Positions 7,384 through 64,000 of a DNA stretch of 64,000 nucleotides are shown here, piece after piece; the first letter of the stretch is position 1, and each line of letters begins with the position of its first letter. Both the position numbers and the translations under genes were made by a program. This DNA is from Octopus vulgaris (Eukaryota). The notes beneath the pieces were generated by a model. That model did no database searches. It saw nothing but the letters and a program-made list of their open reading frames with translations, and had not been told where the DNA came from. Where the stretch lies: the NCBI GenBank assembly GCA_951406725.2, contig OX597818.1, positions 5,332,001 to 5,396,000 of the forward strand, given 5' to 3'.

Positions 7384-7436
7384 CTGAAAAAATGACAATA
7401 GATATACAAACAATACGCATGCATGATTTTACAATG

Positions 7437-10945: not shown

Positions 10946-10969
<24 letters not shown>

Positions 10970-10983
10970 TATTATATAGAAGG

Positions 10984-11034
10984 AGCTTCTACAGGACTAG
11001 AACTGTTTCATTCAAGAGAAATCTTCAGGAAGCT
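10984..11034 (-). ncRNA. Type I hammerhead ribozyme motif (mirror copy in the palindrome)
   Basis: Exact reverse-complement copy of 11031-11081, a consequence of the palindrome. Confidence 0.75.
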
Positions 11035-11081
11035 TCCTGAAGATTTCTCTTGAATGAAACAGTTCTAGTCCTGTAGAAGCT
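11031..11081 (+). ncRNA. Type I hammerhead ribozyme motif
   Basis: Stem I agcttc(11031-36)/gaagct(11076-81); core CTGAAGA 11037-43; stem II t-ttc-tctt-gaa-t; GAAA 11056-59; stem III ACAG/CTGT with loop ttctagtc; GUA cleavage triplet ending at 11075. Confidence 0.8.
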
Positions 11082-11167
11082 CCTTCTATATAATAAATTA
11101 ATTTTACTCTGCTATGTATTGAGTACCTTATTTACTGTGGTTAACCCCGAATCAACCCGGGACCTAC

Positions 11168-22399: not shown

Positions 22400-24100
22400 A
22401 ATATGCTCTTAATATTATACCAGAGGCACTTAAAACGCACTTAAGCACAGGTTCAGTGTCTTCCATACGGTATGCCATTTTTGGGGTCTCCTAGTATCTG
22501 AACTAGGTCGGAATCAGCCCCTTTTGCTACCATTCCTAGGCCACCTATGACAACAGGTATTGCTTTTGTCTTGAGGTTCCACATTTTGCCAATTTCTATT
22601 TCAAGATCATTATACTTACTCAGTTTTTGGTCTTTCTCGACAAATACATTTATGTTGATTGGGACAGTTATACCAATGAGAAGGCATGAGTTCCACAGGA
22701 GTGAGATGTGACCATTTTCAAGTACTGCAAGGGGTAAGTCCAGGTCTTGTCAAATTACCCAGTGAATATATTGTGCTGCTCTATCTTGCTGAGATACTCC
22801 GCAAGATAACGGTACACGAAGACAATATGATCAGTTGTTTCATTCTGTTGTTCACATATACGACATGCTGGGCTACTGCCGTTCTTTAATATGTTGGCCT
22901 AGTAGTTCCTTGTAGGTGGGCATTGATCTTGGGCTGTTATGGTAGACCCTTCTGTTTCTGATTCTAAGTCAGAAGACACTAACCATTGATGGGCAAGTAC
23001 TTCGTCAACATCGGCATTATTAGCTCCCTTTCGGTATTTGTCGTTGACAGGTGTTTCCTGCCATTTATCAGTAAGAATATCTAAAGCAGCAGTTTTAGCA
23101 CGGTTTTTCATAAGATTAGCTTTTTCTGTGCTTGTTTCTAGTAAGTCTAATTCTGGAATTTGTTGTATTTGGAATTCACTTGGATATACCTGTTTTGTCA
23201 CTGAGTATGATGCTTTTCTTGTTGTCATGCTTTAAGACATAAGTTATCAAAATTTTTCAGGTAGGTGTCTAGGCCAATTGTGGCAGTCTTCATTTTGAAA
23301 TCGAGTTGTAAATGGCCACTGCCAGCCTCTTTTCTTGGCATAAAAAGTCGTTTTGTATCTGCCTTAGGCTGGTGCATTCTATTCACTGTCAACGAATTTC
23401 GTATTTTTCTGTCAAGATTATATATTTCAATAATTGAAGAGTTAGTGATATTGAAATTGTAAGTCAAGACTGGCATGGCCAAAGTATTGATGGCTTCTAT
23501 CTTGTTTATTGGATTCAGCTCTCACCTACCCTGCAATAACATTCTCTTTTGATACTTTCCCTTATCACTGAGTGTGTGTTTCCGTCCCGTTCAAATACCC
23601 CGAAGTATTTGGAGTTCTCCGCAGGTTCTAACTCCTTTATGACTTTCTGATGGTTAAGATTAACGTTGGATGTTTTTGTCCTTTTTCTTTTGATAAATGT
23701 AGATTTTGTACATTTATGGAGGCCACATTGCATCTTGATGTATTCACTGAAGTGTTTAATAAATATACAACTTTCTATTAAAAAGAAAACTATAGGTATA
23801 TTCAGTCAGAACAGATGTTCGTATTTTATATATTGCTGTTAAGCATGTTATGGGTGTAAGTATTTAGTTCAATTGCTTCTTCATTTCTTGGAAGTAGGAA
23901 TGTTACACTATTAACTAGCCAAAAGGGAATAATACAAGTTTGTTGTATCACATCGTTGTAAAGTTTTGTTAACAGTTTATGACTCTCTGGGAAAGCATTC
24001 AGCCAGAATTTAGGAATTCCATGCTTTCCTGGAGACTTACATTTGCTTGACCTTAGAGAAGATCTTACATCCTGTATCTTGATACGTTCCCACATTTGTA
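22400..24100 (-). mobile_element. R4/Dong-like RLE LINE, family A, decayed with internal deletions
   Basis: Fragments KSPGKHGIPKFWLNAFPE, LDRKIRNSLTVNRMHQPKAD and HQWLVSSDLESETEG are homologous to 40814-44073. Confidence 0.9.
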
Positions 24101-24109
24101 CACGTAGAT

Positions 24110-24490
24110 TCTAAGTCAAGAGAAAACAAATCAAGAGAAAACAAATCAAGAGACAGCACGTTAGAAGGTCAATTTAGTATTATGTCTAGGGTGTCATATA
24201 TTTGGTTTTGCACGTAGTATTGTTCTAGAAAAAGTTCAAGAAAACATAAATTATAAGTTTGTTTTAAATTTTGAGATTACACAGATAGTATTTAAGGTAG
24301 GATGGGGGCAGTTCCCATGAGTATTATCTTTTGAATTTCTGTCATTTGGAGGTTTCCTGATATCTGAACTAGGTAGGAATCAGCTCCTTTTGCTATAATT
24401 CCTAGGCCACCTATGACAAAAGGTATTGTTTTAGTCCTGTGGTTCCACATTATGCCAATTTCATAATACTTTCATGTTTATTGGGACAGT
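24110..24490 (-). mobile_element. Family A LINE 3'-end fragment
   Basis: cagttcccatgagtattatcttttgaatttctg corresponds to EIQKIILMGTA; the 3' UTR resembles 37200-37340. Confidence 0.8.
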
Positions 24491-24579
24491 CATTCAACGA
24501 TTCTATGTGGTGAAAACATTAGAAAACGACAATATTTCCACAAAGAGTCCACTTAGCAAGAGCGTATTCAGCACCAAAT

Positions 24580-26885
24580 TCAGCTACTTAGGTCTGACAT
24601 TGAATATATAAAAACTTTAAGGTTGACAAGTCTATCAAAGCAACAAAATTCCGAAAATTAAAGAAAAGATATAATATGAAAACCATACTTGACATCGATA
24701 CCACCATAGAAACTATCAAGCAAATGGTATGTGGTAAAGGTGCCCGCATAGCAAGGTATGAAAAGCGTGTTAGATTCTTCAAGGACAAAATGTTAAAAAT
24801 AACCCAAAAACGTTTTACAGGAAAATAGGGAAAATACCAGTTACAGTAAAGTATGTTCCATCAAAAAAAGTGCAGGAGTTTTGGAATAAAATTTGGGCGG
24901 AAGAAAAAACACACAATAAAAAGTCTCATTGGATTGATAGAATATCTACTGAGTTGGAATTCTTAGAAGAGCAAATGTGGGAGCGTATCAAGATACAAGG
25001 TGTAAGATCTGCTATAAAGACGTGAAGCAAACGGAAGTCTCCAGGAATGGATAAAATTCCTAAATTCTGGTTGAATGCCTTCCCAGTGAGTCATGAACTA
25101 CTAACAAAACTTTACAATGATGTGATGCAACAAACTAGTAGGATTCCCTTTTGGCTAGTTAATGGTGTAACATTCCTATTTCCAAAAAATGAATAAACAA
25201 ATGAACCAAAAAATGATAGACCCATAACATGCTTAACAACAATATATAAAATACTAACATCTGCTTTGACTGAATGTACCTATAGTTTTTTAATAGAGAG
25301 TAGTATATTCCCTGATGATCAAAATGGATGTAAACGTAAGTCCTATGGCTGTAAGGATCAGCTACTCATCAATAAAATGATCTTGGAAGATTGTTACCAA
25401 GGAAACAAAAACTTGTCGATAGACTGGATAGACAATAAAAAGGCTTTTGATCGTCTGCCATATGGAATAAAAAATGCCTAAGAAGTATAATATAGCGTCT
25501 ACTGTGAGAAACATCTTGTTTGTAAGTATGAGATCATGGAGAAGCACACTGACTTTGAACAGTGACAATGAATCTCTCAATGCTGTAGATGTAAGAATTT
25601 CATGTGGTATTATCGAGATTGACTTTCTATGAATACTCATCTTTTCTCTCGAAATTGCTCGATGATGTACAATAATGGCCATAAAATGTTTGATTAAAGT
25701 ATAAATCATCTCTTTCACATGGTTGATTTGAAGCGATTTGCAAAAAATCACCAACAACTACAGGGCTTACTAGTGATTGTTAAACAAATCAGTGATGACA
25801 TCAGGATGCAATTTGGCCTCGATAAATGTACAAAAGATACCTTTATCAAAGAAAAATGACATAAACAAAGGTAAAATGACCAGCAAAATGTCATAAAGGA
25901 GTTAGAATTAGCGGAGAGCTACAAATACATAGGGTCATGTGAAGTTGATGGAATCAGACATTCAATGATGAGGGAAAGGATCAGAAGAGAATGTTTTCGC
26001 AGGGTAAGGGCAATACTGAAGACAGAGCTGAATGCAATAAACAAGACCGAAGCAATCAATACTTTAGCAATACCGATTGTGACTTACAGTTTTAATACCA
26101 TTAAGGGGTTAATTACTGAAACGTGTAATATTGACAGGAAAATAGGAAATTTGTTGACAATGCATAGAATGCACCAACCTAAGGCAAGGAAAGAAAAGAA
26201 GGTGGCCGTGGATTTTACAACTGGAACTAACATTGAAGATTGCTACAATTGACCTAGATGCCTACCTGATAAACTTTGATCACTGGATGTTTAAACTTGT
26301 CTTAAAGCATGAAAACATGAAAGCATCATACTCGGTAACAAAACAGGCAAAGGAATATCTAAGTGAATTCCAAATACAATAAATCCCAGAATTCGACATA
26401 CTGGAAAGAAGCATAGAAAAGCTAAACCTGTTGCCTTATTGATAAATGGCAAGAAAAACCTCTCAATGGCAAATACTGAAAGAGAGCTAATAAAGCACTT
26501 GCCCATCAATAGTTAGTGTCTTCTGGCTTAAGATTATAAATAGAAGGGTTTATTATAACTGACCAAGATCAACTCCTACCTACAACGAACTACCAGGCCA
26601 ACATATTAAAGAACAGCAGTAGCCCAACATGTGTATATAAACACAGAATGAAAGAATTCATCATGTTGTCTCCATGTGCAGTCTTCTTGCGCCTACCGAT
26701 TATCTCAACAGGCATGATGGAGCAGCACTGGGTAATTTGATAAGACCTTGACTTACCCCATGGTAAAAACTGGTGGGAACACAAACCACCTGCAGTGCTT
26801 GAAAATGACCACATCTCACCCCTCTCGAACTGAAAGAAAGATAGATTCGAATAGGCCAGACATTATATTTAAAGACTTCAGACTA
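24580..26885 (+). mobile_element. Family A LINE, plus orientation, decayed
   Basis: GCKRKSYGCKDQLLINKMILEDC, WIDNKKAFD, RIRRECFRRVRAILKTELN and KIDSNRPDII, with many stops and frameshifts. Confidence 0.9.
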
Positions 26886-26939
26886 ATATCACACATAACT
26901 GATCAGACTGTTGTAAAAGAAAAACATTCTAACATCAGG

Positions 26940-27950
26940 CTACACCAAGTAACCTTAGATGCCAATAACCCTCCTCAGTATCATAGCTGTTTTCTGGAGT
27001 TGTACTAAACTAGGTTTTATGCCTATTTCATCTATCTATTCAAATCTTTAGGGACACTTCCTATTGCACTTATAACTACTGGGATTCATTTTATCCGCAC
27101 TTTACATAGTTACTGTAATGCAATAGCTATGTCCCGGTACTTTGCCATTCTTTCTATACTTCTCATATTGATTTTGTCAATATTTGGGACTGTAAAGTTA
27201 ATTGTCTGGCATTTTGTATTTTCTTTATCTACTATTACACAATCAAGCCTTACTCTGTCAGTTTGAATGTTAAATTCCCATAACATCTTGCATTTCTTAC
27301 TTTCTGAAACTTTACATGGTTAAGATTCATACTATTTATTAGTATGTTCAATTCCTTGCTTTCTACTCTACCCAGCCCCTAGGTTGTCATGTCTTATGTA
27401 TTCTTTCTATGCCAGCATGCTACATTCACTTACTATATAAGTAACGCTTTCCTCTTCTGATTTACATAACCTACATTAGGAATCTATTTTTGTATATCTT
27501 GGCTATTATCCAATTAGACCTAATGCTTGATCTTGCGCTGCTCCAAACCAACGCTCTGTCTCCCTCATTAGCTTTCATTTCTGTACCATAGCCATGTTTC
27601 ACTACATTATAGAGTCTTGCTTCGGTTGAGAGCAAGTAATATAAATTTGTCCTATTGCTGCAACTATCATTGGGAATCTATCATGCAACCCATTCTCTTG
27701 CCTGTCAGATAATTTCTGTTCCTTTTGTTGATTTTTACCTTCGTTTGGATGTTTGGTTTCCCTATTTCGTGCTGCGGCCCTAGCAACTCTTGGTAAACAT
27801 TATTCATTATTACCTACACAGGAGTCTATATCTACCTTTGCGTTTCTTTGATATATGATTTCCATTATATTTTTCGGATATAATGCTTTCTCATTCTTGT
27901 GGTGCAATATTTTGCATGCTTTTATTCACCGAATGAGTTCAATGTCAACT
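26940..27950 (-). mobile_element. RLE LINE 3' portion, different family, old
   Basis: Minus strand AAQDQALG and KYRDIAIALQ...IPVVISAIGSVPKDL...LQKTAMILRRVIGI*. Confidence 0.7.
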
Positions 27951-28000: not shown

Positions 28001-28043
<43 letters not shown>

Positions 28044-28046
<3 letters not shown>

Positions 28047-28833
28047 CCAAGCACTATATGAGAGAGATTTTCTTTAAGTATTAGAAATGGTTTTTAAAAA
28101 AGTTTTTTAGCTGCTATTTCTAATGAGTTCAGTATGCGGCAAAGTAATTTATTTTACTAAGCCCTTTTATATATTGTAATAATTTGAATTCGCCTTAAAT
28201 GGTCCCTTTGCATACTGAACACTTGGTGAAATTAATTAATAATTAATTAATTTTACCCTCAATTGTTGAAATTATAATTAATCTCCCTCTAATTAATGCT
28301 TCGGATTTTACCGAAATAAGCAGAGTGTTTGTTGATTTTAACCCACGCTGGTGGAAAGGGGAGAGCAGAAATTCTTCGCTTGCATGTTTGAGTTTGTTGG
28401 CACTGTTAGTTACGAGCAGATCTTCGAAAGCGATGAGAGGCCGAAAAAGTATGCTCTCACTTTCAGTGTTTTCAAATCCAAACCAAGGAGTTTCTGAGCT
28501 GATGATAGAAGTGTCGTGATGACTAATCTTGAAACGTACGTTCTCAAATAACCTTTGCATTTGATTTTTTGATGTCTTTACCCCCAAACTTTCGTGGGTT
28601 GAGTTGACCAAGCACTATATGAGAGAGATTTTCTTTAAGTATTAGAAATGGTTTTTAAAAAAGTTTTTTAGCTGCTATTTCTAATGAGTTCAGTATGCGG
28701 CAAAGTAATTTATTTTACTAAGCCCTTTTATATATTGTAATAATTTGAATTCGCCTTAAATGGTCCCTTTGCATACTGAACACTTGGTGAAATTAATTAA
28801 TAATTAATTAATTTTACCCTCAATTGTTGAAAT
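28044..28833 (+). mobile_element. (TA)n-embedded partial tandem: 561-bp unit with identical 229-bp terminal direct repeats (pLTR/retrozyme-like)
   Basis: 28044-28272 is repeated at 28605-28833 (offset 561). (TA)n lies on both sides and the unique part contains a hammerhead motif. Confidence 0.8.
28495..28546 (+). ncRNA. Type I hammerhead ribozyme motif
   Basis: Stem I tgag/ctca; CTGATGA 28499-28505; imperfect stem II (aga..gtc/gac..tct); GAAA 28531-34; palindromic stem III ACGTACGT; GUU triplet ending at 28542. Confidence 0.65.
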
Positions 28834-28838
28834 ATATA

Positions 28839-28874
<36 letters not shown>

Positions 28875-29149
28875 TGTATGTATGTATGTATATATGTATG
28901 TATGTATGTATGTATTCGGGTTTGTGCGCATGTGTATTGTATTTCTATATGTATGCAAAAATATATGCATAATAATAGACGAAATATTTAGGCGTATATT
29001 TCGTGATTTAAAATTCCAGTTTTGCAAAATCTTAAGCTTTCTTACTGACTTATAATTACTTTGGGACTTATTTTTGAGTCTTTGTTACTTTATACATACC
29101 ATTGAGAGAAATCGTAAGAAACATGGAACAAGGAGAAAACTGCACGGCG

Positions 29150-30160
29150 CTGTTATACTGATTTCAAATTTTGGCACATGCCAGCAATTGCAAGGAAGTA
29201 GGCAAATCGATTTGGTTACGTATTTTGTCGATTCCGAAATGATGAAAGCCAATTCGGCTTCGGAAGAATTTACACTAAAAACGTGTAGACAGATGAAATA
29301 TCGCTGAGTATTTTCCCGTCGTCCTAACGACCTTGGCAGCTCGCCGCTTTATACTATTCATATTTTATTAATGAATAAGTCGGCGAGCTGGCAGAATCGT
29401 TGCTGCCCCAGAGAAGATACTAAGCGGTATTTCTTCAGTCATTACGTTTTGAATCCTTTCCGCGGAGATAAAATAAGTACCAGTTGGTGGAACCAATGCT
29501 GAATTTAAAGTTTAGCTCAAGGCTAGAAATTGTAAGCGCTGGGTTTGTTGTAACTGAATACACATTCTCTTAAAATTTCATACCTTGTGACTATAGCTGA
29601 AAGGAATATTACCACTGAATATAAGGCGGCGAGATAGGATCGATGTAATCAGCTTATTACTTCCCCCAACTTTGCTAGCCTTGTGCCAAAATTTGAAACT
29701 AATATTACCGTTCAATATAAAGCGGTGAAGTGGTAGAATCATTAGTACACCTGCCAGTATGCATAGCGGAATTTCTTCCGTTTTCACGTTATGAGTTCAA
29801 ATTCCGCTGAGGTTGCCTATGTCTTTCATCATTTCGAGTCCGTTAAAATAAGTACCATTTGATCATTGAGGTCTATGTAATCGATTAGCTCCCACTCCCG
29901 AAATTGCTTTTCATCGGCCAAAACGTCAAATCAATATTGCCAATGAGAAGACGGCGAACTAACCGAATCGTTCGCACGACCGAATAGATGCTTAGCGGCA
30001 TTTCGTTCGTCGTTGCATTCTGATTTCAAATACCACCGAGGTCGACTTTTTTCTTCAATCCTTTCGGAGGAAACTACAAGTGGAGTACTAGGGTCGATGC
30101 GATCGACTTTGTCTCTCCCCCGAAACTCCCGACATTCTGCCAAAATCTAAAATCAATATT
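29150..30160. mobile_element. Cluster of about 4-5 family 1 SINE copies and fragments (one minus, the rest plus)
   Basis: Repeated ggcgagctggcagaatcgtt, gagttcaaattccgc, ataagtacca and gatgtaatcga blocks. Confidence 0.75.
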
Positions 30161-30749: not shown

Positions 30750-32073
30750 CTTCTTCTTTCAAATTTGCTTCCATTTCTTGCCGAGCGTCTTCCCGACGCC
30801 TAGGGCAAAGAAACTCATAGTATGCATTGGTAGGCCATTAAACCAAACTCAATAGTTCGTTAATTTTTTTAATTTTTTAAAGAAATTTTTTAAGGTTAAA
30901 TTAAAATAAATGGGCAGTAACAGCTCTCACAGCGACAATGCTCTCCTCAATACGTGTGATGTACCAGTTAAGACAATCTTTTGCACTTCTTGCAGGGATG
31001 GTAAGCCAGGAATCATTCTCATATAATTTTCGGTTCCCTTCTTGATCATTCCTAGTGCTCCTACGATCACTGGTATTGTAACCGCCTTGAGATGCCACAT
31101 TTTCTCAATTTCAATGAGCAGGTCTTTATATTTTCTGAGCTTGTCAAACTTTTTCGCCGAGATATTATGATCACAGGGGATGCTTATGTCGATCAATAAG
31201 CAAACTTTATTGTCTCTGTCTTTCACAACAATATCTGGTTTATTGGCTTTGATGGTTCGGTCTGTAAGTACTGGAAAGTCCCACAGAATGGTTACATTTT
31301 CTCCTTCAGTTACAGCTTCAGGGTGGTGATTATACCACTTGTCGGCAGTTTTGATATTGTAATGCCGACTTATTAGCCAGTGTAGATATGCCTTAATTTA
31401 TACTCCACTGGTGCTAAGATTTTACATCCAGAGATTAGGTGGTCCACTGTTTCAATCATGTCATTGCAGAATCGGCATTTTGGGTCTGCTCCATTTTTCA
31501 TTACATTGGCCTGGTAGTTCCGGGTTAATAGGCTTTGATCTTGAGCTGCCAGGTTGAAACCTTCGCTCTCGGCTTTTAGCTCTGAGCTCCGTAGCCACTG
31601 ATGGGTTTGCTTCTGGTCAACATCAGCTTGTTTGCTACGGGCCACATATTTGCCGTGCAGAGGTTTCTCCTCCCACCTATCAGCCAATTGCTCGTGCGCT
31701 TTTTTCGTTGCCATTATTTTCACCTTCTTTGCAACAATAGTTGCCGTACTTCCCTCGGGTTGTTCAGTTTGGGTATCCTGCACGAGATCAATAGCAAATT
31801 TTTTGCTTTCCTTTATGATAGAATGAAGCTTCTTTCGTCTCTCGTGATTTTCCACGAGCTTTAGCATCCAGTCATTCGTTATTTCAAGATATTTGGCCAG
31901 TCCAATTGTGGTTGTTTTGTAAGCTAGTTCAAATTGGATCAGGCCTCGACCTCCTCGGGCTCTGGGAAGGTAAAGGCGATCTACGTCTGCCTTTGGGTGG
32001 TGCATCCTATTACAACTCAGCAGCTTGCGTATTTTCCTGTCTATATTCTTTACTTCACTCATATTCCAGTTCA
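30750..32073 (-). mobile_element. R4/Dong-like RLE LINE, family B, 5'-truncated, flanked by (TTA)n
   Basis: ORFs 31373-32073 and 30927-31226: MHHPKADVDRLYLPR, CRFC...H...C zinc finger, KPDI, KYKDL...TIPVIVGALG. (TTA)n at 32074-32218 and about 30715-30745. Confidence 0.92.
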
Positions 32074-32199
<126 letters not shown>

Positions 32200-32218
32200 T
32201 ATTATTATTATTATTATT

Positions 32219-32435
32219 GAGGTGGCGACCTGCCAGAATCATTAACACGCCGGGCAAAACGCTTGACGGCTTTTCGCCCATCACTACCTTCTGAGTTGAA
32301 ATTCCTGCGAGGTCGACTTTGCCTATCATCCTTTGGGGGTTGATAAAATAAGAACCAGCTTAACACAGGGGTCGATGAAGTAGATTCATCGCCTCCTCTA
32401 AAATTAATGCCCCTGTAGCAAAATTTGATATTATT
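32219..32435 (+). mobile_element. tRNA-derived SINE, family 1
   Basis: ggtggcgacctgccagaatcattaacacgccgggc...gaggtcgactttgcctatcatcc. Confidence 0.8.
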
Positions 32436-32439
32436 ATAA

Positions 32440-32880
32440 TGTGAAAGAACATTGAATGTCATCAAAGTGACACTGAGTAAAATATACGACGCCCAGTATA
32501 ACCATCATGACTACCTGTCTGATAAGGGTACACCAGGTATATGCATCACAAGCATATGTGCACGCCATGGGGATCTCACTCATATCAAGGTAAACAGTAC
32601 ATATCCTTGCAGGTGGGGCTCAGTTAAAATTTTCTTCAGATCGAGTGGCCCATCCCTTTCAAAAGGTCCCTGAATAAGGCTTGTTTAAGGATGTTAAACA
32701 AAACACGTACGCTTCCAGAGGTGAATTATTTAAACACCAAAGAATCCTCCTCAAAAACATGGCTATGATGCTCCGCCACTACTTGTGCTTGGGGTCAGAG
32801 ATGCACATATCGTCAGCCACTAAAGGACATGCTCAACTGGCAACATGCGTATGGTCAAACGACTGACAAGCAAATATCAC
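32440..32880. repeat. Non-coding interspersed repeat (second copy at 46750-47370)
   Basis: catcaaagtgacactg...catcatgacta...gatgcacatatc aligns by eye with 46770-47240. Confidence 0.8.
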
Positions 32881-32889
32881 GTCTTAATT

Positions 32890-33130
32890 TGCTGGGTATG
32901 ATGGAAATTGTCAGCTGTCAACAGTCAGCAGACTAAGGACACTCATTTAATGGGCATGTTTCAAGTACTCTGCGAAGAATTCTTGTAATTCCAAGCAATG
33001 CTGATTTTTGTAGGTGTTCTGCTTTCACACTCACACAAATCTTTTTCTGCCATGTTAGTAGTTGTGTGGTGATAGATCCAAGTGCACCAATTACTATTGG
33101 TATCACGTTTACTCTCTTCATTGACCACAT
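32890..33130 (-). mobile_element. Short RLE LINE 3' end, another family
   Basis: MWSMKRVNVIPIVIGALGSI...LQKSALLGITRILRRVLE. Confidence 0.8.
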
Positions 33131-33264
33131 ACTTCGTATTTCTAATCACGTCTGCTTTCTTCATTGTCCACAAACTTATTTCTCTTCATTGTGATCAGCC
33201 TTCGTATTTCTCTTCATTAACTGCAACATACGTATTTTCTTTCATTGACCACAACCTTTATTAC

Positions 33265-33295
<31 letters not shown>

Positions 33296-33296
<1 letters not shown>

Positions 33297-34047
33297 TATG
33301 TTTGACTTTTGCTTTATATTTGTACAAGTTGGCTCCAAGTCTCACCGAGAGACCTCAAGAGACAACAGGGTTGGAAGTTCATGTTGTTGTTATGCCTAGT
33401 GTGCCATATATTTGAGGGGTGGGGGTGTTGTACTAATGAATGTCTAAAAAAAAGTTTTTTTTTTTTTTTAAACCGAAAATTATGTTTGTTTTAAACCTTG
33501 AGATTACATAGAAAGTATTTTGCGTAGGATATGAGCAGTTCCCATGAGCACTATCTTTTGAATTTCTGCCATTTTTGGGTTTCCTGGTATCTGAGTTAGG
33601 TAGCTATCAGCCCCTTTTGCTATCATTCCCAGGGCACCTATGACAACAGGTATTGTTTTAGTCTTCAGCTTCCACATTTTGCTGATTTCTATTTCAAGAT
33701 CTTTATATTTGCTCAGTTTTGGTAGGTCTTGACAGATACGTTTATATCGATTGGGACAGTCATATCAATGAGGAGGCATGTTCTTTGTTTGAAGTCTTTC
33801 AATATGATGTCTGGCCTATTTGCATCTATCTTTCTGTCAGTTTGAATGGTGAAGTTCCAGAGGAGTGAGATGTTGTCATTTTCAAGCACTGGGGGTGGTT
33901 TGTGTTCCCACCAGTTTTTTTCATGGGGCAAATCCAGGTTTTTACAGATTACCCAGTGAATATATTGTGCAGCTCTATCATGCCTGTTGAGATACTCTGT
34001 AGGCGCTAGAAGACTGCACTTGGCGATAACATGATCAATGGTTTCAT

Positions 34048-34052
<5 letters not shown>
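33296..34052 (-). mobile_element. Family A LINE, 5'-truncated, (TTA)n on both sides
   Basis: WWEHKPPPVLENDNISLLWNFTIQTDRKIDANRPDII; nearly the same sequence as 40605-41365. Confidence 0.92.
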
Positions 34053-34116
<64 letters not shown>

Positions 34117-34189: not shown

Positions 34190-35400
34190 CTAGCAGAAAG
34201 ACTGCCCTCCGGGCGATTTTCTGCTAGCCACCCAATAATATTTCCAGATTGCATTCCCAATTCTAATAATTTTATTATTTTATGTCTACTTATTTCTTTG
34301 TATAATAGTGATCCCTTGTTTAATAGATATTTTATCAGTCATTATCTCTCTTTTTTTTAAGAGTCAATCTGTTATATTTATTTATCATTGAAATTGGTCG
34401 AACTTATATTAATAATTGGTAGAACTTACATACGTTTGCATAGATAGATAGATATGTAGATAGATAGATAGATAGATGGAGGGATGCACGCGCGCGCACA
34501 CACACACACACAACATCTGATGCTGTGAGAACACACGAGAATGACGTTTCCTTACTTTTTCAAATATACCCAAGCATAAGATGATCTAATATAACGATAT
34601 CATTCATTCAGCATCTGTTTAAATATACCAAAACAATTTAATTCCACACAAATATATGTTACTTTACATATAATTTGCATTAATTCTATTTACTGAAACT
34701 TGCTAAAAGGCATATTTTGCTTTAAAGTAGTATTTGCTTTAGACACAAATGTCAGTAATCATACAATTTCCATTTCTCTCGGCCAATATTTTTACATTAG
34801 CCTTCTTTTGAACTCTAGATAGTGCTACATACATCTGACCATGTGAGAAGAATTGTGTCTGAAGATATATTCCGATTTCTTCAAAATTCCATCCCAGTGT
34901 CTTGTTGCACGTCAAGGCAAAAGATGTCTTGACAGGAAATGGTTTGCGTATAAATGGAAATGGAAATTCCATTTCTTGAGATACATGTGTTATTCTTGGG
35001 ATTAGCAGAGTTGATCCTGCATAAGGACCACAAGCAACCTCAGCCTCAAAAATATGACCATGGAAACTGACAATGATGTAGTGTGTGCAATTGCAATGTC
35101 CATTAGAAGCATGTAAATTTATCAGAAGCATTGTGCATCGTTTTTTTATCAGTTTGACAATGTGGAAACCCTGATGGTATAAGCTTGTTGATTACCTCAA
35201 AAAGTATAGCTAAACAACAAGCTGAAGAGATCCACCAACAAACGACAAACCAACCACATTTGCGATCGCTGCAGTAGTGACTGTCACTCACTCATTGACC
35301 TTGTCAATCACAAGCGATGCTGCAAAACCAATCCAATCCAACGCGCAGATCCTTAGTATTTCGAGACGAACGGATGCCAATCATCGTTTATATATATATA
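34190..35400 (-). mobile_element. Helitron remnant with PIF1-like helicase C-terminal fragment (34739-35131)
   Basis: LLINL..NGHCN, LIPRI, PFPFIRKPFPVKTSFALTCNKTLG and FSHGQMYVALSRV are Helitron helicase motifs. The 3' end has the hairpin gccc/gggc and CTAG followed by T at 34190. Confidence 0.85.
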
Positions 35401-36310: not shown

Positions 36311-37139
36311 TTTTTTAAAAAGAGTAAAAAAAAAAGGAAATGTTCCATTTCGTATGGCAAAAATGTCTTGTGCTTAGTATAAGCCGTGAAAACTAAGCTG
36401 AAATATTTGCTATTCTGTCGTGTAGTGACCTCGCCATCGACATACGCTTAGTTTGATAACAACAGCGTGCACATCGGTGTTTATCTGGGGGCTTGGCTTC
36501 CAGATCTATGAGACCCAGAAATGCTGCTGTTAGGACCGGATTAACACCCATAGTGACCCGAATGTCTAAAAATATTTTCTTGTCCCTATATAGTGTATTT
36601 TTTCGTTTTCTTCCAACAACATGAAGGTTTATCTTGCTCCAGTCCATTCAGCTCGCCAGATTGAGTTGTAGCCGTAATTCAAAGAGGCCAGCCTTGTAAT
36701 ATTCTGTGTGAGGATGAATTCTCTTGAAAACTACGTTAATGGTATGCATGTCGGTGGGCTTTTCAGCCATTTGCAAGTTAAGTTTATCCTCATGCCGTAA
36801 TAAAAAGAGAAAGTATTTGCTGCAGATATTTGCCTTTGATTTAACAATGTGTCTATGTATCTATATATCAACATTTATTTCGATCTATGTATCTACTTTG
36901 CTTCCGAGATATACTTTTCTTGCAATGTATGTATCAGTCTACTCCAAAAATAACATTTAAAAACACAAAGCGAAGGCTGTCACCACTCACAGTCTCACTC
37001 ATTTACTATCTCTCTCTCTCCCTTTGTCCTCCTCTCCCTTGCTTTGCCACTCACTTCTTTAGAAGTAAGTGTGATATACACGACGGGTATATCACACTTT
37101 AAAAAAGTCGGCATATTAATATTATTGATAATTAATATT

Positions 37140-40100
37140 ATTGTTTCATGTTGGACTTTTGCTTTACATTTGTCCAAGTTGGCTCCGACTCTCACCCAGA
37201 GACCTCAAGAGAGAACGAGTTGGAAGTTCATGTTGGTGTTATGTCTAGGGTGCCATATATTTGGTTTTGTACATAGTGTTGTTCTAGAGAATGTTCAAGA
37301 AACCATGAAAACATTATGAGTTTGTTTTTAAATATGAGATTATATACAAACTATTTTGCGTAGGTTATGAGCAGTTTCCCTGAGCAATATCTTTTGAATT
37401 TCTGCCATTTTGGGGTTTCCTGGAATCTGAGCTAGGTAGCAATCAGCCCCTTTTGCTATAATTCCCAAGACACCAGGTATTGTTTTAGTCTTCAGGTTCC
37501 ACATTTTTCTAATTTTTATTTGAAGATCTTTATATTGGTTCAGTTTTTGGTAGGTCTTGACAAATACGTTTATATAGATTGGAACAGTCATATCAATGAG
37601 GAGGCATTATTTTTGTCTCGAGTCTTTCAATATGATGTCTGGCATATTCGCGTCTATCTTTCTGTCAGTTTGAATGGTGACGTTCCAGAGGAGTGAGATG
37701 TGATCATTTTCAAGCACTAGATGTGGTTTGTGTTCCCATCAGTTTTTACCATATGGCAAGTCCAGGCTTTTGCAACTTACCCAGTGAATATATTATGCAG
37801 CTCTATCATGCCTGTTGAGATACTCTGTAGGCACAAGAAAACTGCACTTAGTGACAACATTATCAATGGTTTCATTTTGTTGTTGACATACACGACATGT
37901 GCTATGACGTTCTTTAATATGTTGACCTGGTAGTTCCTTGTAGGTAGGCATTGATCTTGAGCTGCTATGATAAATCCTTCTGTTTTAGATTTTAAGCCAG
38001 AGGCCATTAGCCATTGTTGGGTTAGGGCTTTGTCATCGGCATTATTCGCTCTCTTTGGGTATTTGCCATAGAGAGGTTTTTCTTGCCATTTATCAAGAAT
38101 ATCTAAGGCATCAGTTTTAGCACGGGTTTTCATGTGCTTAGCTTTTTCTGCGCTTGTTTCTCGTATGACTAATTCAGGAATTTATTTTATTCGGAATTCA
38201 CTTAGATATTCCTTTGCCTGTTTTGTTACTTGGTATGATGATTACTTGTTTTCATGTTTGGGACAATTTTAACATCTAGTCCTCAGAGTTTTCAGGTAGG
38301 TGTCTAGGCCAATTGTGGCAATATTCATTGCTAACGTCAGTTGTAAAAGTCCACGGCGTCCATCTTTTCTTGCCAGAGAAAGTCCTTCTATATCTGCCTT
38401 AGGGTGGTGCATTCTATGCATTGTCAACAGTTTTCGCATTTTTCTGTCAAGATTACATATTTCAGTAATTGACCAGTTAACGACTGACCTGGTAGTTCCT
38501 TGAAGCTGCCCGCATAACGAGGTATGAAAAGCGTGTTAGATTCTTCAAGAACAACAACATGTTCAAAAATAACCCCCAATTTTTGGGGGGTAGTTCCTTG
38601 TAGGTAGGCATTGATCTTGAGCTGCTATGATAAATCCTTCTGTTTCAGATTTTAAGCCAGAAGCCATTAGCCATGGTTGGGTCAGGGCTTTGTCAACATA
38701 TGCACTATTCGCTCTCTTTGGGTATTTGTTATAGAGACGTTTTTCTTGCCATTTATCATTCAGAATATCTAAGGCAACAGTTTTAGCACGGGTTTTCATG
38801 CGCATAGCTTTTTCTGTTCTTCTTCTTCTTCTTCTTCTTCTTCTTCTTCTTCTTCTTCTTCTTCTTCTTCTTCTTCTTCTTCTTCTTCTTCTTCTTCTTC
38901 TTCTTCTTCTTCTTCTTCTTCTTCTTTTTCTTTTTAAAGCATTTCTGTTAAAGCATTGATCGCTTCTATCCTGTTTCTCGCATTCAGCTCTGTCTTGAGT
39001 ATTGCTCTTACTCTGCGATAACATTCTCTCCTGATCCTTTCCTTCATCACTGAATGCCTTATTCCGTCCCCTTCAATTACCCCTAGTTATTTGTAGCTCT
39101 CGGCTAGGTCTAACTTTTTTATGAAATTCTGCTGGTCAAGGTTAAAGTTAAACGTTACTGTCATATTTCCTTTGATAAAGGTAGCTTTTGCACATTTATC
39201 GAGGCCAAATTGCATTCTGATATCATCACTGAATTGTTTAACAATCGCTAGTAAGCCCTTGAGTTGTTGGTCATTCTTTGCAAAGAACTTTAAATCATCC
39301 ATGTAAATGAGATGATTTATATTGTTATCAAACATTTTATCACCGTACTGTTCATCATTGAGTAATTTTGAGAGGGGTATTAAGGCTAAAGATAAGAGGA
39401 TTGGTGATAGTGAGTCACCCTGGAGAATGACAGCATTTAGAAATACATTGTCACTATTCAAAGTTACTGTGGTTCTCCATGATCTCATACTTCCAGACAA
39501 AAATAGCGCCTACTTAGCAGAGTAGGCGCTATTTTATACATTTCTAGGCATTTCTTAATCCAGCTATGTGGCGGGCTCTTAAAAGCTTTTTTATAGTCTA
39601 TCCAAGCTATTGACAAGTTCTTGTGTCGTTTGTGACAATCTCCTAAGATCATCTTATTGATGAGTAGCTGATCTTTACAACCATAGGATCCACGTTTACA
39701 TCCTTTTTGCTCATTAGGGAATATGCTGTTTTCTATTAAAAAACTATAGGTATATTCAGTCAGGACAAATGTTAGCGTTTTATATACAGTTGTTAAGCAG
39801 TTTGTGGGTCTATAAGTTTTTGGTTCGTTTGTTTCTTCACTTTTTGGAAGCAGGAATATTAAACCATTGACTAGCCAAGAAGGCATCCTACTAGGTTGTT
39901 GCAAAACATCGTTGTAAATTATGTTAGCAGTTCATGGCTCTTTAGGATGGCATTCAACCAGAAGTTAGGAATTTTATCCTTTCCTAGAGACTTCCATTTG
40001 CTTGACCTCCTGAGAGCAGATCTTATATTTTCTACCTTGACACCCTCCCACTTTTGCTCCTCTAAGGAGTCCAAGTCTGTAGATATTCTATCAACCCTAG

Positions 40101-40583
40101 GGGCTTTTTCATTGTGTTTTTTCTTCTGCCCAAATTTTATTCTAAAATCCCTTCACTTCTTTCGACGGAACAAACTTTACAGTAACTGGTGTTTTCCCTA
40201 TCTTACAGTAAATAAATTGGGGGTTATTTTTGAACATGTTATTGTTCTTGAAGAATCTAACAAGCTTTTCATACCTCGTTATGCGGGCAGCTTCAGCACA
40301 TACCTTTTGCTTGATGGTTTCTATGGTGGCATCAATGGTTTTCATATATTTTTTCTTTAATTTTCGGGTTTTTGTAGGTTTAGTAGTCTTGTCAAACTTA
40401 AGGTTTTCCAAACATACCATGTCATACCTAAGTAGCTTAATTTGGTGTTGGATACACTCTTGCCAAGAAGGCTTTTTGTGAGAATGTTGCTGTTTTCTAA
40501 TCTTTTCAACACATAGGATCATTGAGATTTTCGCGGATGCATAGTACAGGTGGTTGTGATCTGTGATATCCACATCATTAGCT
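37140..40583 (-). mobile_element. Family A LINE, older copy, 5'-truncated, with an internal rearrangement at 38481-38950
   Basis: RT motifs ILQGDSLSP, HLIYMDDLK and WIDYKKAF; RLE C-terminus at 37340-37591; several frameshifts. Confidence 0.92.
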
Positions 40584-40604
40584 GATTATTATTATTATTA
40601 TTAT

Positions 40605-43600
40605 TCTATGTTTGACTTTTGCTTTATGTCTGTACAAGTTGGCTCCAAGTCTCACCCAGAGACCTCAAGAGACAACAGGTTGGAGGTTCTGTGCATTATA
40701 TTTTTTGTTTTTGTTTTTTGTTTTTTTTGGTGTTGTACTAGTGAATGTCTAATACATAAAAATTAAAAAATAAAAATAAAAATATAAAAAAAAGTTTGTT
40801 TTAAACCTATGTTTTACATAGAGAGTATTTTGCGTAGGATATGAGCAGTTCCCATGAGCACTATCTTTTGAATTTCTGCCATTTTGGGGTTTCCTGGTAT
40901 CTGAGTTAGGTAGCAATCAGTCCCTTTCGCTATCATTCTCAGGGCACCTATGACAACAGGTATTGTTTTAGTCTTCAGGTTCCACATTTTGCTGATTTCT
41001 ATTTCAAGATCTTTATATTTGCTCAGTTTTTGGTAGGTCTTGACAGATACGTTTATATCGATTGGGACAGTCATATCAATGAGGAGGCATGTTCTTTGTC
41101 TGAAGTCTTTCAATATGATGTCTGGCCTATTTGCATCTATCTTCCTGTCAGTTTGAATGGTGAAGTTCCAGAGGAGTGAGATGGGGTCATTTTCAAGCAC
41201 TGGAGGCGGATTGTTTTCAAACCAGTTTTTTTCATGGGGCAAATCCAGGTTTTTGCAAATTACCCAGTGAATATATTGTGCAGCTCTATCATGCCTACTG
41301 AGGTACTCTGTAGGCGCTAGAGGACTGCATTTGGAGACAACATGATCAATGGTTTCATTTTGTTGTCGGCATACACGACATGTTGGGCTACTGCCGTTCT
41401 TTAATATGTTGGCCTGGTAGTTTCTTGTTGGTAGGCATTGATCTTGAGCTGCTATGATAAACCCCTCTGTTTCAGATTTTAAGCCAGAGGCCATTAGCCA
41501 TTGATGGGTCAGGGCTTTGTCGATATCTGCATTATTCGCTCTCTTTGGGTATTTGCCATAGAGAGGTTTTTCTTGCCATTTATTATTCAGAATATCTAAG
41601 GTCGCAGTTTTGGCACGGGTTTTCATGCGCCTAGCTTTTTCTGTGCTTGTTTCTTGTATGTCTATCTCTAATTCCGAAATTGGTTGTATTCGGAATTCAC
41701 TTAGATATTCCTTTGCCTGTTTTGTGACTGAGTATGGTGCTTTCTTGTTTTCATGTTTTGAGACAAGTCTTAACATCCAGTCCTCAGAGTTTTTCAGGTA
41801 GGTGTCTAGGCCAATTGTAGCAATCTTCATTGTTATTGCCAGTTGCAAAAGACCACGGCCTCCCTCTTTTCTTGGCAGATAGAGTCGTTCTGTATCTGCC
41901 TTAGGGTGGTGCATTCTATGCATTGTCAGCAGTTTCCTTATTTTTCTGTCGAGCTGACATATTTCAGTAATTGACCAGTTAACAATATTGAAACTGTAAG
42001 TCACGACTGGTATGGCTAATGCATTGATCGCTTCGATTCTGTTTCTTGCATTCAGCTCTGTCTTGAGTATTTCTCTCACTCTTCGATAGCATTCTCTCCT
42101 GATCCTTTCCGTCATCTCTGAATGCCTTATTCCGTTCCCTTCAATTACCCCTAGGTACTTGTAGCTCCCCGCTGGGTCTAGTTCGTTTATGACATTCTGC
42201 TGGTGAAGGTTAACGTTAGATGTTTCTTTCATTTTCCCTTTGATAAAGGTAGCTTTTGCACAGCTGCTGCCTAGACATGTGATTTTTTTAGTACAGCTTG
42301 CGTAGCTACAGTAAAATGGAAGAATCTGATGTCGTCACTGAATTGTTTGACTATCGCTAGTAAGCCCTTGAGTTGTTGGTAATTTTTTGCAAAAAGCTTT
42401 AAATCATCCATGTAAATGAGATGATTTATATTTTTATCAAACATTTTATACCCGTACTGCGCGTCATTGAGCAGCTTTGAGAGAGGTATTAAGGATAAAC
42501 AAAAGAGGAGTGGTGACAGTGAGTCACTCTGGAAAATGCCACACGAAATTTTTACATCACCAGCATTTAGGGATTCATTGTCACTGTTCAGAGTTAGTGT
42601 GGTTCTCCATGATCTCATACTTACATACAAGAAGTTTCGCAGAGTAGGTGCTATCTTATACATTTCCAGGCATTTCTTAATCCAGCTATGTGGTAGGCTA
42701 TCAAAAGCCTTTTTATAGTCTATCCAGGCTATTGATAAGTTTTTGTGTCGTTTGTGACAATCTTCTAAGATCATCTTATTGATGAGTAGTTGGTCTTTAC
42801 AGCCGTAGGATCCACGTTTACATCCTTTCTGTTCATTAGGGAATATGCTGCTGTCTGTTAAAAAACTATAGGTATATTCCGTCAGGACAGATGTTAGTGT
42901 TTTGTACATAGTTGTTAAGCAGGTTATGGGTCTATAGTTTTTTGGTTCATTTGTTTCTTCACTTTTTGGAAGCAGGAATGTTAACCCATTAACTAGCCAA
43001 GAAGGCATCCTACTAGGGTGTTGCAAAACATCATTGTACAGTTCTGTTAGCAGTTCATGGCTCTCTGGGAAGGCATTCAGCCAGAAGTTAGGAATTTTAT
43101 CCTTTCTTGGAGACTTCCATTTGCTTGACCTCCTGAGAGCAGATCTTATATCTTCTACCTTGACACCCTCCCACTTTTGCTCTTCTAAGGGGTCCAGTTC
43201 TGTAGATATTCTGTCAATCCAGGGGGTCTTTTCGTTGTGTGTTTTTTCTTCTGCCCAGATTTTATTCCAAAATCCCTGCAATTCTTTTGATGGTACAGAC
43301 CTTGCAGTAAACGCTGTTTTTCCTATCTTCCTGTAAAAATTCTTGGTTTTATTTTTGAACATGTTGTTGTCCTTGAAAAATCTAACACGCTTTTCATACC
43401 TCGCTATGCGGGCAGCTTTGGCAGATACCTTTTGTTTGATGGTTTCTATAGTGGCATCAATATCAAGTATAGTTTTCATATTGTATTTTTTCAGTAATTT
43501 TGGGGTTTTTGTAGGTTTGGTAGTCTTGTGAGCCTTAAGGTTTTTCAAATATTCAATGTCAGATATAAAGATTTTAATTTGTTGTTGCAGACGCTCTTGC

Positions 43601-44660
43601 CAAGAAGGCTTTTTGTGGGAATGTTGCCGTTTTCTAATCTTTATACCACATAGGATCGTTGAGATTTTCGCGGATGCATAGTATAGGTGGTTGAGGTTTG
43701 TGATATCAACATCATTAGCTGAAATTATATCCTTACATGCAAGCCGGATTTTACCAATTATTTTCATGTTTTGGTTAGAGTTGCGGATTTTAGGAAGTGT
43801 ATCACGTTCATCCATGCTGGTTTCTTTAATTTTCAGCCATTCAATCATGATTTGATTTTCTAGCTCATGTAGTTCTGTTGGGTCAATATTTGTGTGACTT
43901 TCTTTATCTATTTGATGCTCATCTGTCTTAGTGTTTATGATTGGTTCAGGGAGTATTTCACTTTGCCTATCACTTATACTAAATCTTTCAATCCTCACAT
44001 CGTTTTTATCAGCCCTGGGCTGGTCTATAATTATTTCCTCTGTATTATCTTCTCTAGCTGCAGCTTCGTTCATTTTATCCGATATTGCTTGTCTAACTTG
44101 ATCAATCTCTACTTCAGTCAGTAATTTGTTTTTTATAATGTTTCTTCTGACGTTGGCAAGTTTGTTACTGTCTATGTAGGGTCTTACTTCAGGGTGTTTC
44201 TGTCTCCAGTTTAAGTATGCTTGTACAGTACTAGATTTATCCGTGGGGAAAATAATGGCATGGTAGAAGGCCTCAAGAACTTCTTTATTATCTTCCCTAG
44301 ACCATTTCTCCTTCTTTTCTTTTGATTATTTGGTGATGAGCATGGATGGCCATCTGTTGGAATATTCCGGTTGTGGGGTACGTCCAGCTCCTATGTGTTG
44401 GGAAGATTTGATCCAGTAGCTGATTTTTCAATCAGAATTTGGTTCAATTTTCGGGTACGTGGTCTTTTGTAATCCGCGCAACGACCAATGCGATTTATTG
44501 TTTGATTTGTTGACCTTGAAGCATGACGAGCATCCATTCTTATATTAGGAGATGGATCTGTCAGTTTAGGGTTCTCTACATGTAAGCATTGCTCATAGCG
44601 CAGCTTCTTAAGACTAGCAGATCTATATTCGTCTGTATTTTTTTTGTTGATAGTTTTATC
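40605..44660 (-). mobile_element. Near full-length R4/Dong-like non-LTR retrotransposon (single ORF: Myb-like N-terminus, RT, CCHC finger, RLE)
   Basis: KWSREDNKEVLEAFY (about 44310), NYRPITCL, WIDYKKAFDS, GIFQSDSLSP, YMDDLK, CRVC..ETIDHVVSKC, RHD, RPDII, IDMTVP, KLSKYKDL. The ORF is broken at 42263-42324 and near 44320; (TAA)n tail at 40584-40604. Confidence 0.95.
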
Positions 44661-45590
44661 TCCGAACATTTTTTTTCCTCCTCTTCCTTTCTTCAAGGCT
44701 CACTCTGCCTGTATTAGTTCGAAATAATGAGAATAAAATACGGAGAAAAAAAACGAAAAGAAAGGGAAAAAGACGGGATCTGTCAGTTATTATTGTTATT
44801 ACTATCACCTTCACCACCATCACCATCATCAGCAACATCACCATGACCATCATCATCATCAATGACATTGTTTTATGTGTAGCCACAGCCACCATCAACA
44901 CTCCATCGTGAGGGAGAATGGTTGGTTAAAGAATTCATGTTCTTTGGGTCTATAAATAGATTCGGCAGATGGTGGAGACAAAGGACGTTAATGGTCAGTA
45001 AAATGTCAAACCTGTTTACATTTATTTATTTTATTTTATTTTTATTTATTTTTTTTCCTTTCCTTTCTCTTTTCTTTCTCTCCACATACATATGTATATG
45101 TATATATATACTCACTCACACATTATCTGATGTTTACGTCGATGATTTAAAAAAAAAAAAACTTTCTGAGTTCAATGTTATGTAAATATTTTTTAAATTT
45201 CTGAATTCAGTTGTATGTATATATTAGTAGGTGCTTAATTCCATAACTTTTCATCGTGCATTTAATTGTGTTGTTACAATAAAAGGTAATTTAAAAGGCA
45301 ATTTTACACATTCTTATAGTCATGAGAGATGACTAAATGTAAATGTTCACACAGAATTGAAGATATTTATGTTTCTAATTTTTCTTGTTAGGTGTACGTT
45401 TGTATGAGCTGTAGATATGTAAGTTTTTTAAACTTATTTTGAGGGAAATTCAAATTACAGTAGTTCTTCCAGTTTTCTACAGTTGTTTTTTTCAGTTGTC
45501 CTGCTGGGTTCGCTGTTGCCAGTTCAGAGCATCGTAAAAATACATCCATCCTCTGTCACATCCAGCCGCCTTCCTTCTTATTATTTTCTT

Positions 45591-45655
<65 letters not shown>

Positions 45656-45672
45656 CATCATCATCATCATTA

Positions 45673-45707
<35 letters not shown>

Positions 45708-45715
45708 GTTATTAT

Positions 45716-46130
45716 TCATGGGGCAAATCCAGGTTTTTGCAAAATACCCAGTGAATATATTGTGCAGCTCTATCATGCCTGTTGAGATACTCTGTAGGCG
45801 CTAGAAGGGTGCACTTGGAGACAACATGATCAATGGTTTCATTTTGTTGTTGACATACACGACATGTTGGGCTACTGCCGTTCTTTAATATGTTGGTCTG
45901 ATAGTTCCTTGTTGGTAGGCATCGATCTTGAGCTGCTATGATAAACCCTTCTGTTTCAGATTTTAAGCCAGAAGCCATTAGCCATTGTTGGGTCAGGGCT
46001 TTGTCAACATATGCACTATTCGCTCTCTTTGGGTATTTGTCATAGAGAGTTTTTTTCTTGCCATTTATCATTCAGAATATCTAAGGCATCAGTTTTAGCA
46101 CGGGTTTTCATGTGCTTAGCTTTTTCTGTT
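45716..46130 (-). mobile_element. Internal family A LINE fragment bounded by (TTA)n and (TTC)n
   Basis: KYPKRANSAYVDKALTQQWLMASGLKSETEG...CRVC...RHDRAAQYIHW...LPHE. Confidence 0.9.
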
Positions 46131-46143
46131 CTACTTCTACTTC

Positions 46144-46175
<32 letters not shown>

Positions 46176-46373
46176 CTTCTTCTTCTTCTTCTTCTTCTTC
46201 TTCTTCTTCTTCTTCTTCTTCTTCTTCTTCTTCTTCTTCTTCTTCTTTTTCTTTTGTTTTTCTTTTTCTTTTTCTTTTTCTTCCTCTTCTTCTTCTTCTT
46301 CTTCTTTTTCTTTTTCTTTTTCTTTTTCTTTTTCTTCTCCTTCTTCTTATTATTATTATCATTATTATTATTA

Positions 46374-61200: not shown

Positions 61201-61340
61201 ATTCATGAATTTATGTATTTATTAATTTTTAAATACATATTTCACCTGTGAATTTGCGCGTGTAATCTGGGAATGCATACAATGAGTTTCCCTGCCCTAG
61301 GTGTACGGAAAACACTCGGCGAGAAAAGGAAGAAAAAAAA
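58215..61340 (+). mobile_element. R4/Dong-like RLE LINE, family B, decayed
   Basis: NCRPIICL, WIDYKRAFDSIPHSW, GIFQGDSLSP, YMDDLKL, ILWDFTVHTDKTIKANKPNII and the EVQKIVLTGTAHVLRRALSL* end. The 3' UTR resembles 30750-30830. Confidence 0.93.
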
Positions 61341-61359
61341 TAATGATAATACATTTTAC

Positions 61360-64000
<2,641 letters not shown>

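Follow-up and report, generated by a model that had tools for sequence, protein, structure and literature searches.

Two identical direct repeats set in a (TA)n microsatellite, with a hammerhead ribozyme motif between them, raise the question of which kind of mobile element left this insert and whether the molecule copied into the genome was a circular RNA. The locus lies in a 64-kb stretch of Octopus vulgaris DNA (the window), in which the element was found once. Comparison of the window with itself revealed that positions 28044-28272 and 28605-28833 are exactly the same over 229 nt, at a spacing of 561 nt, and that the identity stops sharply on both sides. The insert is 790 bp long and consists of 1.4 head-to-tail copies of a non-coding 561-bp unit with a GC content of 34.6%. 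Its parts and flanks are as follows.

28002-28043 (28002-28044 when read as (AT)n), no strand: (TA)n flank on the left, belonging to the probable target microsatellite
28044-28272, plus strand: repeat copy 1, 229 bp, read as an extra 0.4 unit, probably 5'-truncated and resembling a pseudo-LTR
28273-28604, plus strand: unique part of the 561-bp unit, 332 bp, starting with TATA (28273-28276)
28485-28555, plus strand: type I hammerhead with its core at 28499-28505 and 28531-28534, checked for variation in the family
28605-28833, plus strand: repeat copy 2, 229 bp, with the same sequence as copy 1; reverse transcription putatively started at its right end
28786-28818 (also 28225-28257), plus strand: AT-rich 15-bp hairpin, ending 15 nt before the 3' end
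28833-28915, no strand: right flank, (TA)7 followed by (TATG)n

The TATA at 28273-28276 is microhomologous to (TA)n and lies where the right end of the element falls within the unit, and the AT-rich hairpin is a putative, possible signal for protein recognition. No target-site duplication can be read in the (TA)n surroundings. The 229-bp repeat begins with TG and ends with AT, and a search of both strands for LTR hallmarks at the insert revealed no CA end, no TGG primer site and no purine tract abutting the 3' repeat. The insert is without the TG...CA termini, the primer-binding site, the purine tract and the ribozyme within both repeats that characterize LTR retrozymes and TRIMs. An earlier note on this DNA had described identical 229-bp repeats 561 bp apart, an absence of LTR-retrotransposon hallmarks and (TA)n on both flanks. 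The first two points are confirmed, and the third needs a small correction, as (TA)n is present on both sides but the right one has just seven TA units before (TATG)n.

The single hammerhead of the 790-bp insert is located between the 229-bp repeats, on the plus strand. Its CUGAUGA box occupies 28499-28505 and is followed by stem II (28506-28530) and GAAA (28531-28534). The 25-nt stem II begins with a basal U.U pair, continues with two 3-bp segments on either side of a 3x3 loop and ends in a 5-nt loop, while the palindrome ACGUACGU at 28534-28541 forms a 2-bp stem III with a GUAC loop. In the GUU triplet U17 is position 28542, and the cut is predicted after this nucleotide. Stem I has 4 bp (UGAG 28495-28498 paired with CUCA 28543-28546) and can be extended past an internal loop. 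The hammerhead descriptor, which matches at 28499 and gives one type I hammerhead per unit as in metazoan retrozymes, was matched by 1 of 20,000 dinucleotide shuffles of the unit, by none of 20,000 when the palindromic stem III was included, and by none of 100 shuffles of the whole window. The earlier claim of one type I hammerhead with a palindromic stem III in the unique part holds. The Rfam search did not detect the hammerhead at 28499, neither at the gathering score nor at E values up to 10.

In the energy model, the active monomer fold of this copy has -0.7 kcal/mol versus -10.7 for the local minimum, and the double-hammerhead fold reaches -16.0 kcal/mol for two molecules, where the co-fold minimum is lower, at -32.4. 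When the unit is folded as a circle, the ensemble does not populate the active fold (probability 0.0 for stem I and about 0.02 for stem II). As the monomer fold is weak and the double-hammerhead fold is favoured, help from a dimer in the cleavage of this copy's hammerhead is plausible as far as the model goes. The more restrictive proposal that such hammerheads cleave only as dimers is not established: the double hammerhead is preferred in the model, but hammerheads with a tetraloop on a 2-bp stem III represent the invertebrate type, which is described as cleaving as a monomer (PMC7229834, PMC7761336). The description of the axolotl HHR_Amex2, of which the monomer was reported to be cut at 22% in an hour and the dimer much better, is matched here by the 2-bp stem III with a tetraloop and by the U.U pair at the base of stem II (PMC7229834). 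The unit as a whole is strongly self-paired compared with shuffles (z of -5.9 when linear and -6.0 when circular).

Out of 24 public sequencing runs listed, 20 contain the stretch or part of it (nine studies, four organism labels), and there is no RNA run among the listed runs that contain it. Family counts were obtained from four runs of four studies, three under one organism label and one under another, the two other labels (share 0.38 each) not entering the counts, and the query for the contig comparison was one unit length (28160-28720) with both element ends inside. The matching contigs numbered 4148, 758, 140 and 2491 per run, covered all 30 bins and contained 46-71 variant sites in each run; the summed depth of contigs does not give a copy number, and contigs show no RNA ends, strand or circularity. 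The 561-bp unit is covered over its whole length by a polymorphic multi-copy family, which occurs under two organism labels. A single-copy locus, which the earlier note had considered fatal to its own reading, is not what these variant contigs describe. The combination of head-to-tail units (1.4 here) with multiple copies (contigs in all four runs) is that of a retrozyme. Among the 32 records listed, three bridge the unique-to-repeat junction 28604/5 by at least 31 nt per side, and none bridges the junction 28272/3 by 31 nt on both sides, the best short sides being 26 and 23 nt. Loose ends at about 28430 (28431-28448) in two runs suggest a variant of the unit that is some 18 nt shorter, and the unit length may therefore vary (about 543 versus 561). 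A 21-mer of the hammerhead region had no matches in metagenome and viral contigs. Two metagenome matches of a 19-mer of the repeat were rejected as chance matches of 19-21 nt inside bacterial-looking reading frames.

Seven variant sites of the family fall in the 52-nt hammerhead, none of them at the 26 positions of the core, stem I and stem III (among 40 of the 73 variant rows listed). They affect the free position N7 of the core, the U.U pair, which becomes G.U, the internal loop, one pair in which the change preserves a wobble, and three loop bases. The sparing of the 26 positions within the motif has a hypergeometric P of 0.005, a post hoc value that refers to the same 40 of 73 rows; the absence of core variants alone, tested over the whole unit, is not significant (P 0.15). 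One family contig covers 28487-28549 with one difference. Decay of the core in other copies, another finding that would have spoken against the reading of the earlier note, was not observed, since the listed variants (40 of 73 rows) spare the core. The hammerhead looks conserved across the family, and cleavage therefore probably matters. Over the whole unit, family variants break 11 predicted pairs versus 16.1 expected at random (P 0.036).

The only long frame in the unit has 123 codons on the minus strand, a length reached by 35 of 2000 shuffles. It was rejected as coding: the 36 family variants within it comprise 29 non-synonymous changes, 6 synonymous changes and 1 stop, the latter carried by 43-64% of the depth, and it matches no Pfam family below E 0.07. 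No tRNA gene was found in the 64-kb window.

The two repeats also provide information on the template. At 28234, 28608, 28612 and 28650 both repeats share the letter of the window, from which 74-99.7% of the family depth differs in each of the runs. These four common minority alleles point to one template lineage rather than to independent draws from the family; they fit a single RNA read twice, and also a homogeneous tandem donor belonging to a minor subfamily. The repeats differ at 0 of 229 positions (95% upper bound 1.3%), which supports a young insertion, as was proposed from their identity, unless assembly polishing equalised them.

As for the ends of other copies, the 24 of 247 loose ends listed include two contigs, both from one run, that pass from the unit into (TA)10 at 28276, no more than 4 nt from the point corresponding to this copy's right end. 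There the unit reads TATA, which would allow base pairing with a nicked (TA)n primer. Among the same 24 of 247, none runs into (TA)n at the left boundary or at 28605, in a listing from which contigs bearing microsatellites may be dropped. Three single contigs switch strand in the family, one of them at a quasi-palindrome, and none does so at this locus. Taken as a weak hint, these ends suggest that the Penelope pattern, in which priming occurs at a nearly fixed 3' site, 5' truncation varies and copies are sometimes inverted, fits better than free permutation. The terminal redundancy had been called arbitrary in the earlier note, and this is not established, given the two (TA)n ends close to the right end of this copy.

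The features of the insert can be compared with those of three known systems. With metazoan non-LTR retrozymes, as described in PMC7229834, it shares the lack of coding capacity, a GC content under 50%, head-to-tail arrangement, a type I hammerhead, the lack of LTR, primer-binding site and purine tract, a self-paired fold and multiple copies. The 561-bp unit is longer than the 170-400 nt circles of that 2020 study and falls within the retrozyme range of 51-972 bp given in a 2026 preprint (bioRxiv 10.64898/2026.07.22.740005). In the same preprint an active element is defined by two complete hammerhead units in tandem; as the insert has one ribozyme, it is not 'active' by this definition, and this copy would be incapable of releasing a circle through double cleavage. 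With the exception of the second ribozyme of an active copy, the insert, judged by its sequence, has the characteristics of a metazoan non-LTR retrozyme.

Similarities to Penelope-like elements (PLEs; PMC4209133, PMC8557442, PMC11167929) include a partial tandem that gives a pseudo-LTR, the (TA)n target and the lack of a readable duplication, a long stem II, a 4-bp proximal stem I and a palindromic stem III, and there are hints that the 3' end is fixed and that inverted copies exist. Unlike the Penelope-like elements described there, the insert has no reverse transcriptase (RT) or GIY-YIG frame, and its hammerhead lies outside the duplicated part. No GIY-YIG endonuclease was detected among the 115 frames of the window that were scanned (Pfam, E<=0.001). 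Plant LTR retrozymes and TRIMs are also short non-coding elements with identical direct repeats and a hammerhead (PMC7761336, bioRxiv 10.64898/2026.07.22.740005). In plant LTR retrozymes, type III hammerheads are found inside both LTRs, along with a primer-binding site, a purine tract and 4-bp duplications (PMC7761336, bioRxiv 10.64898/2026.07.22.740005), whereas in the insert a single type I motif lies outside the repeats and these signals are all absent.

Circles have been shown for three animal retrozymes, i.e. those of coral, mussel and axolotl (PMC7229834, PMC7761336). A circle-templated cDNA of more than unit length was proposed for PLEs in 2014 (Cervera and de la Pena, PMC4209133) and for retrozymes in 2020 (PMC7229834, PMC7761336), and retrozymes have been argued to derive from PLE pseudo-LTRs (bioRxiv 10.64898/2026.07.22.740005). 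PLEs target (TA)n, and the Naiad and Chlamys PLEs, which are devoid of canonical hammerheads, make partial tandems in microsatellites (Craig et al. 2021, PMC8557442). Naiad PLEs have been reported in Octopus (PMC8557442), recently active Penelope-like families in O. vulgaris (PMC13282606) and 235 'hammerhead 1' hits in the giant squid (PMC6962438). The 35 genomes of Li, Clavereau and Pollet 2026 include no mollusc (bioRxiv 10.64898/2026.07.22.740005). In the work on O. vulgaris repeats (PMC13282606), 'ribozyme' is absent from the text, and ribozyme, hammerhead and retrozyme are absent from the supplement. We found no description of a cephalopod retrozyme or of this family in the literature searched; the supplements of 2014, 2020 and 2026, Repbase or Dfam may already list it. 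As both the retrozyme class and the model of rolling reverse transcription are already published, the finding alone would not surprise a specialist.

Based on the motif, the multi-copy family and the (TA)n target, we suggest that the family is very probably an animal non-LTR retrozyme, that is, a non-autonomous Penelope-type element, which supports the assignment made at the outset, and that the insert was probably written by target-primed reverse transcription of a head-to-tail RNA. The complete path with a circular monomer RNA as the template is one that we favour tentatively, at somewhat below an even chance, and its RNA- and enzyme-level steps are those that we infer from the observed structure, target, motif, family and shared alleles. 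A donor located elsewhere and possessing two or more ribozymes would be transcribed. By analogy with the coral, mussel and axolotl retrozymes, cleavage by the hammerheads would follow U28542, and the monomer would be joined by a host ligase into a circle of about 561 nt. A borrowed Penelope-type RT/endonuclease may then nick (TA)n and prime at a near-fixed UAUA located 291 nt 3' of the cut. The enzyme would copy 790 nt, through the junction and past its own start, before stopping, and this would produce the two identical 229-bp ends that the insert displays. The circle is the best single choice, since the ribozyme seems to be conserved and the three animal retrozymes studied produce circles in abundance. 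On the other hand, no full dimer or autonomous partner was found in the short contigs or in the window. Activity of the hammerhead in this particular copy is called into question by the GUU triplet, by the U.U pair closing stem II and by the absence of the fold from the circular ensemble. Among Xenopus retrozyme dimers, 8 of 9 were reported without cleavage in vitro (bioRxiv 10.64898/2026.07.22.740005).

The layout of the locus is compatible with a circle and also with an uncut tandem transcript or a template jump, because Penelope-like elements without ribozymes make the same partial tandems in (TA)n. The same family might have inserted by Penelope-type target priming from a linear template, either an uncut tandem transcript or cleaved monomers between which the enzyme jumped, and the 229-bp repeat would then be an ordinary pseudo-LTR resulting from 5' truncation, with no circle involved. 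We regard this as quite possible and as following closely behind the circle, since not only the Naiad and Chlamys elements devoid of canonical hammerheads but also the non-autonomous MRC1 form such partial tandems (PMC8557442), and since PAc, the one PLE enzyme tested in vitro, uses uncut RNA with an internal start, its ribozyme mutants inserting normally in vitro (Frangieh et al. 2024, PMC11167929). The hint of a near-fixed 3' end fits a linear template, and the weak predicted monomer fold (-0.7 versus -10.7 kcal/mol) would leave the RNA uncut. It is more difficult to reconcile a linear template with a hammerhead that looks conserved family-wide, so that cleavage probably matters, and with the abundance of circles in the three animal retrozymes studied; neighbouring units of the array would, moreover, need to have the four minority alleles in common.

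It is improbable that the insert is a TRIM-like or other fixed-end element, with true terminal repeats of 229 bp, an internal region of 332 bp and a hammerhead that processes one end. Such an element would be expected to have identical direct repeats, and the left end does begin with TG, but there is no CA end, primer-binding site or adjoining purine tract, and no (TA)n loose end lies at 28605 among the 24 of 247 listed. In the four runs the repeat has, on average, 1.2-2.0 times the summed depth of the unique part, as terminal repeats would predict, although the peak depth ratios are 0.9-1.3. The depth profile tends to rise from 28274 onwards (rho 0.26-0.67) and drops at 28255-28274, the drop ranking 1st to 3rd of 27. 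These ratios and steps were set aside, since summed contig depth is no copy number and the dips follow divergent sites. Microsatellite targeting and strand-switch joints fit PLEs. Very improbable, finally, is the insertion of a monomer followed by partial local duplication, or repeats made identical by polishing. A local duplication would also yield shared minority alleles; however, the unique-to-repeat order was seen in other family contigs under two organism labels, so the junction is not private to this locus, and the repeat-unique-repeat layout differs from an adjacent duplication of 229 bp.

Returning to the circle-templated retrozyme, published work leaves two questions, that of the circle as the actual template and that of the autonomous element by which retrozymes are mobilized, and a young, dispersed and polymorphic family with copies of more than unit length is good material for a test of the circle template. 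A bolder proposal, which at present seems doubtful, is that a high-copy, recently active family exists in at least two related animal species (probably octopods) and that its copies start at one fixed UAUA and overshoot around a ribozyme-made circle. If this were true, the genomic copies would be a natural data set, and they would offer the first direct and countable test of circles as the template of a Penelope-type RT.

The window contains a second, unrelated type I hammerhead-like motif, in the segment 10969-11167 (core 11037-11043, GAAA 11056-11059), with a 4-bp stem III, a GUA triplet, a predicted cut after 11075 and a U.U pair at the base of stem II. It is located inside a perfect 128-bp palindrome (10969-11096), is mirrored on the minus strand and lies between two (TA)n runs. 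The right end of the segment is 92 nt past the cut, and the spacing implied for PAc is 85-92 nt (PMC11167929). Judging from this arrangement, the segment resembles a Penelope-type copy that was truncated at its 5' end and has a partner in inverted orientation, and it suggests Penelope-type activity in this genome.

Several copies of a dispersed, SINE-like repeat of about 170 bp are present in both orientations at 29150-30160, and others, with 67-87% identity, near 636, 12599, 20029, 32235, 46455 and 53072; this repeat presumably resembles octopus SINEs. A low-complexity frame of 673 codons on the minus strand (5407-7428), with a 36-bp tandem repeat inside (5535-5923), matches no Pfam family, and a weak match to the Pif1 helicase 2B domain (34742-35191, E 0.021, below the cut-off) perhaps represents a Helitron fragment. 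The window is AT-rich and rich in microsatellites, and it contains many broken copies of non-LTR retrotransposons with reverse-transcriptase and zinc-finger matches (22400-27000, 30760-34060, 37100-46200 and 58950-64000), which are often interrupted by (TTA)n or (TTC)n runs.
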